64,000 nt of DNA from Eledone cirrhosa (GCA_964016885.1 OZ024751.1:23622001-23686000), one strand, 5' to 3'; counted from the first letter of the stretch, positions 9,494 to 39,347 are shown. Notes: generated by a model from the sequence alone, not told the origin. Numbers and translations: made by a program.

Positions 9494-10699
9494 ATGAAGA
9501 TGTTGATAAACTATTTTGTTTTAATCCTGACAGCAACTCTATCGCTAGTAAATCTCAGTCCTACGCGGGAAGATGAAATTCTACTACATACTAACTTGTT
9601 ATCCACTTATAACAAACAAATAAGGCCTGTTTCGAATTTGAATAAATCAGTCGATATAGAGGTTTGGTTATTCCTTAAGACGCTCTATAATTTCGATTTT
9701 GTAAATAACATATTAATTGCACAATACTTCATTATCTTCTACTGGGAAGATGAAATGCTGAGATGGAATCCAGAAGATTACCATAACCTCACACGTACAT
9801 ACTTACCGAAAGCTAAGGTATGGACACCAGGTGTCATAATGTGTAATTCAATGAAGGAATCAGACGATAAAGATAGTTTTCCCGAGGTAATAGTTTATAA
9901 TGAAGGGTGGATAGAAATGCGGGCACTAAAATCAGTAGAGACATATTGTGAAGTAGATGCTTACACCTACCCATTTGATAAACAGGAGTGCCCAATCTGC
10001 ATATCTGTCACTGTGCACGAACCTCAGCATACCAAATTTGTATCAATTAATTGCGGGGTTAATGAATTTGAAAATAACCACCAATGGGGTATCAGCATGG
10101 ATGGTCAAGTAGACCCAAAGAACGACATATACAGCTCCGTAACAGCTACGATGTTCTTACAACGTAAACTCACAGTAGGTATTTTGGCTATGCTAATTCC
10201 AACTGTAATGATGACACTTTTAACTATCTTTGTGTTTCTCCTGCCCCCTGAATCAGGAGAGAAAGTCTCTTTAGCAACAACGATATTTTTATCAAATGTC
10301 TTATACCTCGTTCAAATAGATAAAACGACGCCTAAAAACTCAAAATATCCTTCACTTCTGATGTTGTATTTAATGTTGTTATCAATGTGCAGTGGAGTCG
10401 CCACACTTGGTTCAGTGGTTCTCAGTAAATTGTATGTAAACCAATCGGCTAAGGAAAAGAATTCATCGGCTTTAGATCAAAATAATACCAAACCTCAGGG
10501 TAACAAAATTGCTGATGTTTCACTAATTTCCACAGCACAAGCTTATCCTGCCATGACACAGGAAAGGTCAAAGTTAAAACGATGGTTCTACATCTCTGAC
10601 TACGTACGACTTGACAACATTTTTCTAAAACTTAGCGTCGTAACATCAATAATAATTGCAATATTATTTGTAACTTTGTTGTTTACAGCTCCGGATTAA
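9494..10699 (+). CDS. Chemotactile receptor (CR)-like divergent nicotinic-type Cys-loop ion channel subunit, copy 1 (intronless CDS, 401 aa)
   Basis: Uninterrupted ORF. The ORF-track start at 9470 is TTG and the first ATG is at 9494. Hydrophobic signal peptide; nAChR-like motifs YNKQIRP, W.D..LRWNP and VWTP; Cys-loop C160-x13-C174 with YPFD; M1-M2 linker LPPESGEKVSL; four TM segments; short M3-M4 loop. No loop-C CC, no loop-B Trp, loop-A Tyr replaced by Cys. Intronless tandem organisation matches cephalopod CRs. Confidence 0.92.
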   Translation: MKMLINYFVLILTATLSLVNLSPTREDEILLHTNLLSTYNKQIRPVSNLNKSVDIEVWLFLKTLYNFDFVNNILIAQYFIIFYWEDEMLRWNPEDYHNLTRTYLPKAKVWTPGVIMCNSMKESDDKDSFPEVIVYNEGWIEMRALKSVETYCEVDAYTYPFDKQECPICISVTVHEPQHTKFVSINCGVNEFENNHQWGISMDGQVDPKNDIYSSVTATMFLQRKLTVGILAMLIPTVMMTLLTIFVFLLPPESGEKVSLATTIFLSNVLYLVQIDKTTPKNSKYPSLLMLYLMLLSMCSGVATLGSVVLSKLYVNQSAKEKNSSALDQNNTKPQGNKIADVSLISTAQAYPAMTQERSKLKRWFYISDYVRLDNIFLKLSVVTSIIIAILFVTLLFTAPD

Positions 10700-10819
10700 G
10701 CAATTCTAAAATATTGAAAAATAAACTAAACGTACATTCATAAATACATCGCTATTTCAGAGCACCAATAAGTGTGTATTTATATATATAATGTAGTAGT
10801 AGTGCACTCAGTCCATGGG

Positions 10820-37441: not shown

Positions 37442-38141
37442 ATATGTGTAGTGTCTGAAAGCTGGTCACCATTAACATAGAATATGGTTTAGAAGCTTTG
37501 ATTTAGATTGTATTTTCTAACAAGTCTCTCTTCGATTTCAGGTAGACGATTCTTCTGGTTACTATAAAACCTTGTATATCTGTAACAGCGACTCATTTCT
37601 TCAATAAGAACCTAAGAACTTGAAAACTACTATTTCCTGCAGATATTGTTACTGCTGTCACAAGTAATTTACTGAATCACATACATTTGCGTGGACACAC
37701 ACAGACACACACAGACACACACACAGACACACACACACACACACACACACACACACACACACACACACACACACACACACACACACACACACACACACAC
37801 ACACACACACACACACACACACACACACACACACACACACACACATAAACACACATACACATATATTCATATATAATGAAACAACTTCCTAAATGATAAA
37901 AAAGATGGACTATTTAATATGTTATTATATAATCCTCGTATATGTTAACAATCAGTTCTTATTATAACTTTTACTTGCGCCTATAACAGTGACCTAACAC
38001 TTACTAAATGAAACACTTAAAACTTTGACAAATTAATATTTATATTTATTAGAGAATGTTAATATTTAATGGAGTGAATTTATATGTATCAGAGAAACAT
38101 TAATACAAAAACTAAAATTGGCTCGTTTACAAATAGGAAAG

Positions 38142-39347
38142 ATGAAGATGTTGATAAACTATTTTGTTTTAATCCTGACAGCAACTCTATCGCTAGTAAA
38201 TCTCAGCCCTACGCACGTAGATGAAATTCAACTACATACTAATTTGTTATCCACTTATAATAAACAAATAAGGCCTGTTTTAAATTTGAATAAATCTGTC
38301 GATATAGAGGTTCTGTTACTCCTTAAGACGCTCTATAATTTCGATTTTGTAAATAACATATTAATTGCACAATACATCATGATCTTCTACTGGGAAGATG
38401 AAATGCTGAGATGGAATCCAGAAGATTACCATAACCTCACACGTACATACTTACCGAAAGCTAAGGTATGGACACCAGGTGTCATAATGTGTAATTCAAT
38501 GAAGGAATCAGACGATAAAGATAGTTTTCCCGAGGTAATAGTTTATAATGAAGGGTGGATAGAAATGCGGGCACTAAAATCAGTAGAGACATATTGTGAA
38601 GTAGATGCTTACACCTACCCATTTGATAAACAGGAGTGCCCAATCTGCATATCTGTCACTGTGCACGAACCTCAGCATACCAAATTTGTATCAATTAATT
38701 GCGGGGTTAATGAATTTGAAAATAACCACCAATGGGGTATCAGCATGGATGGTCAAGTAGACCCAAAGAACGACATATACAGCTCCGTAACAGCTACGAT
38801 GTTCTTACAACGTAAACTCACAGTAGGTATTTTGGCTATGCTAATTCCAACTGTAATGATGACACTTTTAACTATCTTTGTGTTTCTCCTGCCCCCTGAA
38901 TCAGGAGAGAAAGTCTCTTTAGCAACAACGATATTTTTATCAAATGTCTTATACCTCGTTCAAATAGATAAAACGACGCCTAAAAACTCAAAATACCCTT
39001 CACTTCTGATGTTGTATTTAATGTTGTTATCAATGTGCAGTGGAGTCGCCACACTTGGTTCAGTGGTTCTCAGTAAATTGTATGTAAACCAATCGGCTAA
39101 GGAAAAGAATTCATCGGCTTTAGATCAAAATAATACCAAACCTCAGGGTAACAAAATTGCTGATGTTTCACTAATTTCCACAGCACAAGCTTATCCTGCC
39201 ATGACACAGGAAAGGTCAAAGTTAAAACGATGGTTCTACATCTCTGACTACGTACGACTTGACAACATTTTTCTAAAACTTAGCGTCGTAACATCAATAA
39301 TAATTGCAATATTATTTGTAACTTTGTTGTTTACAGCTCCGGATTAA
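38142..39347 (+). CDS. Chemotactile receptor (CR)-like Cys-loop ion channel subunit, copy 3
   Basis: Same length and architecture. Differs from copy 1 at 8 aa, all within residues 33-88. First ATG at 38142. Confidence 0.92.
   Translation: MKMLINYFVLILTATLSLVNLSPTHVDEIQLHTNLLSTYNKQIRPVLNLNKSVDIEVLLLLKTLYNFDFVNNILIAQYIMIFYWEDEMLRWNPEDYHNLTRTYLPKAKVWTPGVIMCNSMKESDDKDSFPEVIVYNEGWIEMRALKSVETYCEVDAYTYPFDKQECPICISVTVHEPQHTKFVSINCGVNEFENNHQWGISMDGQVDPKNDIYSSVTATMFLQRKLTVGILAMLIPTVMMTLLTIFVFLLPPESGEKVSLATTIFLSNVLYLVQIDKTTPKNSKYPSLLMLYLMLLSMCSGVATLGSVVLSKLYVNQSAKEKNSSALDQNNTKPQGNKIADVSLISTAQAYPAMTQERSKLKRWFYISDYVRLDNIFLKLSVVTSIIIAILFVTLLFTAPD

Follow-up and report, generated by a model that had tools for sequence, protein, structure and literature searches.

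Three closely related open reading frames lie on one strand of a 64,000-nucleotide stretch of Eledone cirrhosa DNA (GCA_964016885.1 OZ024751.1:23622001-23686000; hereafter the window), and the locus raises the question of what kind of receptor they encode, how the array arose and what its members might sense. Copy 1 (9494..10699), identified by reading frame, profile, tree and fold, copy 2 (21875..23080) and copy 3 (38142..39347) are all on the plus strand and encode 401 residues each, and all three frames lack stops and coding introns. The start-to-start distances are 12,381 bp (copies 1-2) and 16,267 bp (copies 2-3), so that the coordinates, frames and spacing match the original prediction of three intact, intronless, same-strand paralogs about 12.4 and 16.3 kb apart. 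Between copies 1 and 3, 16 of 1,206 bases and 8 residues differ; all 8 lie within residues 25-80, and the two proteins are the same from residue 81 onward. Copy 2 differs from copy 1 at 74 bases and 50 residues (43 of them in the ligand domain) and from copy 3 at 73 bases and 49 residues. The other long open reading frames of the window are mostly microsatellite read-through, with GIY-YIG fragments as exceptions.

The Pfam ligand-binding and membrane domains score above their cut-offs in all three copies. The Cys-loop (C152-C166), the GEK motif at residues 255-257 (-1' Glu), the 9' Leu and four membrane helices, the latter as predictions, were all found, as had been anticipated. The M2 pore helix of copy 1 (residues 255-278, with the GEK filter and 9' Leu) is encoded at 10256..10327 on the plus strand, and its protein sequence is identical in copies 1, 2 and 3 and in CRT1. 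In copy 1, upstream ATGs lie 134, 73 and 58 bases before the start (window 9360-9493), all out of frame; the neighboring gene L007 has one upstream ATG in frame, which would add 19 residues.

A search of PDB sequences (222 matched) with these proteins gave E-values of 1.3e-137 for CRT1, 8.7e-42 for squid CRB1 and 2.8e-32 for the next family. The AlphaFold2 model of copy 1, built as a single subunit, has a mean pLDDT of 78, and a fold search with it ranked CRT1 first (rmsd 1.8 A). The nearest public protein, the best among 30 found, is 57% identical. A quick tree of 54 rows was built with three non-CR outgroups and gave long-branch warnings; CRB1, L025 and the exon-sized matches L026-L030 were left out. 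In it, the copies fall within a 38-row clade containing CRT1 (SH-aLRT 99), the 13 CRT-clade genes of the E. cirrhosa genome group together (99), and nine of these form a young clade (100). Matches of canonical type in the same genome are short and exon-sized. Grouping with CRT1 orthologues is absent in the trees and is not rejected by an AU test on the ligand domain (p 0.205). By sequence and model, copies 1-3 are CRT-clade chemotactile receptors. The predicted CR-family membership is thus borne out by the PDB search, the fold search and the quick tree with its three non-CR outgroups, and the proposed BLASTP and phylogeny check places the copies with CRs and not with canonical nAChRs.

It is very improbable that the genes instead encode Cys-loop subunits with a non-sensory or accessory role (neural or glandular) that are merely CR-like. 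Just 1-3 of 14 CRT1 pocket residues are kept, and a broader 'CR-like' clade has been reported in molluscs (PMC13174522, in the portion available), which would suit such subunits; against them, the copies nest with CRT1, sit in a CR cluster and share its M2. The preferred reading, to which a probability of about 0.8 is assigned, is that these are CRT-type intronless genes that likely form sucker-cell cation channels and belong to a nine-gene mosaic burst with a diversified pocket and a shared pore.

A search of the animal's own genome returned 50 matches, 25 of them long; 24 of the long ones span 307 kb of contig G000:C11, and one lies on C23. Repeating the search with a divergent Octopus paralog as query recovered the same 25 long matches, and tblastn over 234 kb gave 14 genes and no further fragments. 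The tandem array described from the window is present but reaches well past it, since the window contains three of the 24 long CR-like loci of the 307-kb cluster. The CRT-clade genes follow one another, in window coordinates, as L007 (-4.1 kb), copies 1-3, L003 (68.0 kb), L005, L004, L009 and L008 (104.5 kb), followed by L013, L010 (119.3 kb), L011 (128.8 kb) and L012 (149.2 kb). The frames of the nine young genes are open in 9 of 9.

Several features of the wider cluster were recorded alongside. Cys187 is common to all nine young genes. Each copy has five ligand-domain cysteines; copies 1 and 3 have Cys169 and Ser171, as in the old paralog L012; copy 2 keeps Cys171 (equivalent to CRT1 C150) as well as Trp79; L004 and L005 have neither Cys169 nor Cys171, but have gained Cys83. 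L025 (G000:C11:23863980-23865011) is a CR-like near-copy of L024 with a premature stop at codon 192, and two short M2-M3 fragments lie beside this pair, at 23861238 and 23866916. The lone intact CR-like gene outside the cluster, L023 (G000:C23:18648326-18649423), is sister to L024 in the tree. L017-L020 (G000:C11:23908982-23925053, minus strand) are divergent and CR-like with altered filter motifs (ESKQKV in L019 and L020, STGERV in L017), and their selectivity may differ. From another sample, run X4, whose kind is unrecorded, gave one 1,420-nt contig covering the gene only, which matches L005 at 23 of 23 compared positions and copy 1 at 1 of 23, and which is not counted here as a sign of expression. 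In the RAD runs X5 and X6 the coding region is covered by about 0-2 reads, and the contig depths of run X1 do not measure copy number.

Copy 1 lies in a duplication unit at 1715..17090 and copy 3 in its sister unit at 30173..45661, both on the plus strand; a gene-less partial unit follows the latter at about 45.6-49.0 kb. These ~15-kb units differ by 92 substitutions in 11,534 unmasked aligned bases (0.8%). The region upstream of copy 2 (16120..21874, plus strand) is 0.86% from that of copy 1, while its downstream region is 2.1% from that of L007 and 3.6% from that of copy 1. The unit of copy 2 is accordingly a mosaic, closest to copy 1 upstream and closer to L007 downstream. Repeated unequal crossing-over would leave the copies as such mosaic units. 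The very recent expansion that had been proposed is borne out by the tree together with flank divergence of 0.7-3.6%.

A separation of 0.8% is also a level possible for alleles, and copies 1 and 3 could be alleles set in tandem by the assembly, which would leave two genes and the family unchanged. This is improbable: there is no N in the 234 kb examined, about 70 coding bases separate the would-be partners L007 and copy 2, and the upstream region of copy 2 is equally near that of copy 1 (0.86%), so real duplications this young do occur.

Each unit carries one GIY-YIG endonuclease fragment, which we take to be Penelope-like (19909..20382, plus strand; 36305-36778; and a shorter one at 7789-8134). 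Just downstream of each copy (window 11076-11825 for copy 1), another GIY-YIG-like retroelement fragment was recognized by eye in translation; very high read depth there indicates a genome-wide repeat. At window 49916-54083, a 3.3-kb TA-rich microsatellite is flanked by a 463-bp direct duplication (96.8%).

Besides duplication, exchange between the genes is indicated by a PHI-type permutation test (132 informative sites, p 0.001). A putative gene-conversion tract is a 175-bp patch at 38207..38381 of copy 3 (plus strand; 9559-9733 in copy 1), which contains 15 of the 16 coding bases at which copies 1 and 3 differ, against 1.2 expected from the flanks. At these 15 sites, copy 3 has the L003 letter at 12 and a private one at the other three. 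By this comparison, copy 3 appears to be copy 1 with its N-terminal helix and strand 1 overwritten by an L003-like patch. After codon 80, only 1 of 963 bases differs between copies 1 and 3, with 6.7 expected from the flanks (p 0.009).

The pore half shows sharing on a larger scale. From mid-M1 to about 23 bases past the stop (10208..10722, plus strand), copy 1 is ~97% shared with the otherwise distant L010 and L011. The ligand domains of these two genes are 46-47% identical to that of copy 1, but over the cytoplasmic loop plus M4 the figure is 95-98%, compared with 48% between CRT1 and copy 1. Differences between copy 3 and L010 number 254 of 714 before codon 238 and 14 of 489 after it; the corresponding values with L011 are 257 of 714 and 19 of 489. 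At four-fold sites the differences between copy 1 and L010 drop from 12/36 to 4/71 (p 3e-4), and no significant drop occurs between copy 1 and L012 or L013; purifying selection is therefore no explanation. L010 and L012 show a drop from 24/44 to 12/55. Beyond the stop the sharing continues for about 22 bases, with a variant of the copy 2/copy 3/L007 type in L010 and of the L003/L009 type in L011, before both genes revert to their own flank. Because of these flank variants and the L010-L012 drop, sequence favours repeated transfer from the young genes into L010 and L011. In a tree of the tail, L010 and L011 stand beside the young clade and not inside it (84/86), so the direction rests on the flank and four-fold data. 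Gene conversion would in this manner shuffle ligand-domain patches and copy the pore half between paralogs.

L010 and L011 are the most CRT1-like genes of this genome, with 8 and 9 of the 14 pocket residues, and their best matches are CRT1 and its orthologues (63-65%). They are candidates, by sequence, for this animal's steroid receptor. In the ligand-domain tree, L010/L011 and L013 group with different Octopus paralogs (87, 82). Those groupings are rejected by the tail data (p 0.0007, 0.004), and a single 13-gene clade is not rejected by the ligand-domain data (p 0.237). All 13 CRT-clade genes form one clade in full-length trees and do not in ligand-domain trees. Between themselves, L010 and L011 (G000:C11:23741340-23752015) differ at 3 bases in the ligand domain and 9 in the tail. 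In another sub-cluster, L015 and L016 (G000:C11:23823356-23836279) show synonymous differences of 21/106 across the ligand domain, 5/107 over codons 211-330 and 10/36 thereafter, a comparable dip that is possibly a second pore-region conversion. No such dip was seen in the pore region of the L023/L024 pair.

The two halves of the protein also differ in their substitution pattern. For the nine young genes, dN/dS averages 1.35 over the ligand domain against 0.48 over the membrane half, and dN exceeds dS in 31 of 36 and 1 of 36 pairs, respectively, the pairs not being independent. A codon model gave omega values of 1.65 (LRT against 1, p 0.012) and 0.59 (p 0.027), so that the overall dN/dS is about 1.3-1.65 against 0.5-0.7. 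A tree-free count found 136 nonsynonymous and 29 synonymous changes in the ligand domain and 48 and 25 in the membrane half (p 0.007). Ligand-domain pN/pS exceeds 1 with p 0.34, 0.067 and 0.013 at kappa 1, 1.9 and 3, significantly only at kappa 3, and none of the pairwise ligand-domain tests among the young genes was significant. The contrast in dN/dS between the domains is firm. An omega above 1 is not robust, as recombination can inflate the LRT, and positive selection on the ligand domain is likely, not proven.

Variation is concentrated at the ligand pocket. The pocket set comprises the 14 residues at which CRT1 was mutated in 10.1101/2025.10.28.685082 (Fig. S8 legend, in the part of the preprint available), among them Y39, Y58, W122, F124, L153, S169, L191 and F192. 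Positions with at least three states make up 9 of the 14 pocket positions and 27 of 188 others (p 7e-5); six of the pocket residues were added after the variable positions had been seen. The first list, of eight residues from two preprints chosen before counting, gave 6 of 8 against 30 of 194 (p 5e-4). Pairs show the enrichment as well (3/8, p 0.012; 8/43, p 0.003), and of the 8 residues separating copies 1 and 3, three fall on positions of the CRT1 pocket (L37, Y39, Y58). Relaxed constraint on exposed pocket residues would likewise give variable pockets.

This evidence also bears on whether the burst was near-neutral, with redundant or silent copies, drifting pockets and conversion as mere array noise. 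Such a history would fit a ligand-domain omega that is barely above 1 and depends on kappa, the transposon fragments and long microsatellites in the units, and the gene-less partial unit behind copy 3. It is nevertheless unlikely, given that all nine young frames are open with a membrane-half omega below 1, that the identity of copies 1 and 3 after codon 80 is above the flank expectation (p 0.009), and that pocket sites are enriched even in pairs.

For the acetylcholine site, the copies were aligned against two canonical receptors, with the usual names for loops A to D. Missing from the copies are the loop A Tyr, the loop B Trp and, in loop C, the first Tyr and the vicinal cysteines; loop C itself has 6-7 residues fewer than in these two receptors. 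At position 79 (the loop D Trp) copies 1, 2 and 3 have Phe, Trp and Ile, and at position 213 (the second Tyr of loop C) each has Tyr, so the aromatic remainder consists of 79 and 213 in copies 1 and 2 and of 213 only in copy 3. The claim that the agonist box is gone thus stands for loops A and B and, in loop C, for the first Tyr and the vicinal cysteines, but not wholly for positions 79 and 213, which are partly aromatic. Its residue identities were right, but the numbers given for the loop A Cys (125) and the loop B Thr/Ala (181) were eight too high; these residues are C117 and T/A173, and positions 125 and 181 are occupied by D/E and K. The hallmarks of nAChR alpha subunits, the loop C vicinal cysteines and the loop B Trp, are absent, and the copies would be expected to be insensitive to acetylcholine.

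How the proteins might work can be drawn from CRT1, whose behavior is taken from the available portions of 10.1101/2025.03.03.641191 and 10.1101/2025.10.28.685082. By analogy, five subunits would assemble into homo- or heteropentamers, a poorly soluble surface chemical would bind between neighboring ligand domains, and the GEK pore would open to Na+/Ca2+ and depolarize the cell. Expression would, likewise by analogy, be in sucker sensory cells. D/E125 aligns with E104 of CRT1, which tunes calcium flow. Of the 14 CRT1 pocket residues, 1, 3 and 2 are retained in copies 1, 2 and 3; Arg143 occupies the position of W122, and Leu or Gln that of F124. The Arg is not unique, being present at this site in three other public CRT-clade proteins. 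Given the few residues kept and the Arg for W122, the ligands are predicted to differ from those of CRT1 and between copies, and Arg143 may confer a taste for acidic amphipathic compounds. The CRT1 mutants W122L, F124V, Y58V and C150A each lack a progesterone response (10.1101/2025.10.28.685082, in the text available). CRT1-like pharmacology is for this reason not expected, with the proviso that single mutants need not transfer, and copies 1 and 3, lacking a Cys equivalent to C150, may not work as homomers. It is likely, judging from the proteins, that different chemicals are sensed through the same channel.

A more ambitious proposal is a mix-and-match CRT repertoire, in which selection maintains one standard module of pore, cytoplasmic loop and M4, spread by recurrent gene conversion across 11 paralogs, candidate CRT1-like steroid receptors included, while ligand patches are shuffled and retuned (Arg for W122) to a ligand class outside that of CRT1, with subunits interchangeable. 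This is rather doubtful as a whole; if true, heteropentamers would give a combinatorial taste code.

The CR family, its intronless structure, its clustering and its pocket diversification have already been published, and copies 1-3 may already be among the 235 CRs of a preprint on mating (10.1101/2025.10.28.685082, seen in part). New here are the dN/dS contrast between domains, the pocket-focused variation, the mosaic copies and the pore half in L010 and L011; the original prediction had not included the larger cluster, the gene conversion or the altered pocket. The locus belongs to a known family and is no new system, but it makes a useful natural set for tests. Work on how sensory receptors retune their pockets usually compares paralogs sharing about 50% identity, whereas copies 1 and 3 differ at just 8 residues, and L010 and L011 carry a CRT1-like ligand domain on the pore of the young family; both pairs would allow ligand tuning to be tested cleanly, separate from gating. 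The mosaicism calls for care as well, as recombination can bias site-selection scans on CRs; the word 'recombination' is absent from the available main text of 10.1101/2025.10.28.685082. A literature search, with the text of the primary CR papers beyond its reach, turned up no account of gene conversion in CRs or ligand-gated channels; the sole mention was a reference title in one review, and four other listings were unrelated.

Domain-restricted conversion in tandem arrays is known from clustered protocadherins and odorant receptors. These are likewise patchwork paralogs in which one domain is homogenized and another diverges. Among ligand-gated channels, canonical nAChR alpha subunits and 5-HT3A share the Cys-loop fold and the GEK cation motif with the copies at ~20% identity. 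Squid CRB1 (PDB 8EIZ) is a relative within the CR superfamily (E 8.7e-42), far remoter than CRT1. O. bimaculoides CRT1 (PDB 8EIS, 9E6B) resembles the copies in fold, length, the 16-residue W198-Y213 loop C span, the loop A Cys and the M2 sequence, with 92% identity across M1-M3, but identity falls to 44% over the ligand domain and to 48% over the cytoplasmic loop plus M4, and the pocket is largely replaced, with Arg at W122. The clustered 26-gene CR array on chromosome 15 of O. bimaculoides (PMC9068888; clustering also in PMC11526382; both in the portions available) is similar in size to the E. cirrhosa set of 24 long matches plus one on another contig. The ages of the two sets differ. For O. 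bimaculoides, 10 CRT-clade proteins were retrieved; they are old, most of them pairing with proteins of other species, and none of their 45 pairs exceeds 81% identity beyond M1, whereas 9 of the 13 CRT-clade genes of E. cirrhosa are young and 11 of the 13 share at least 90% after M1.
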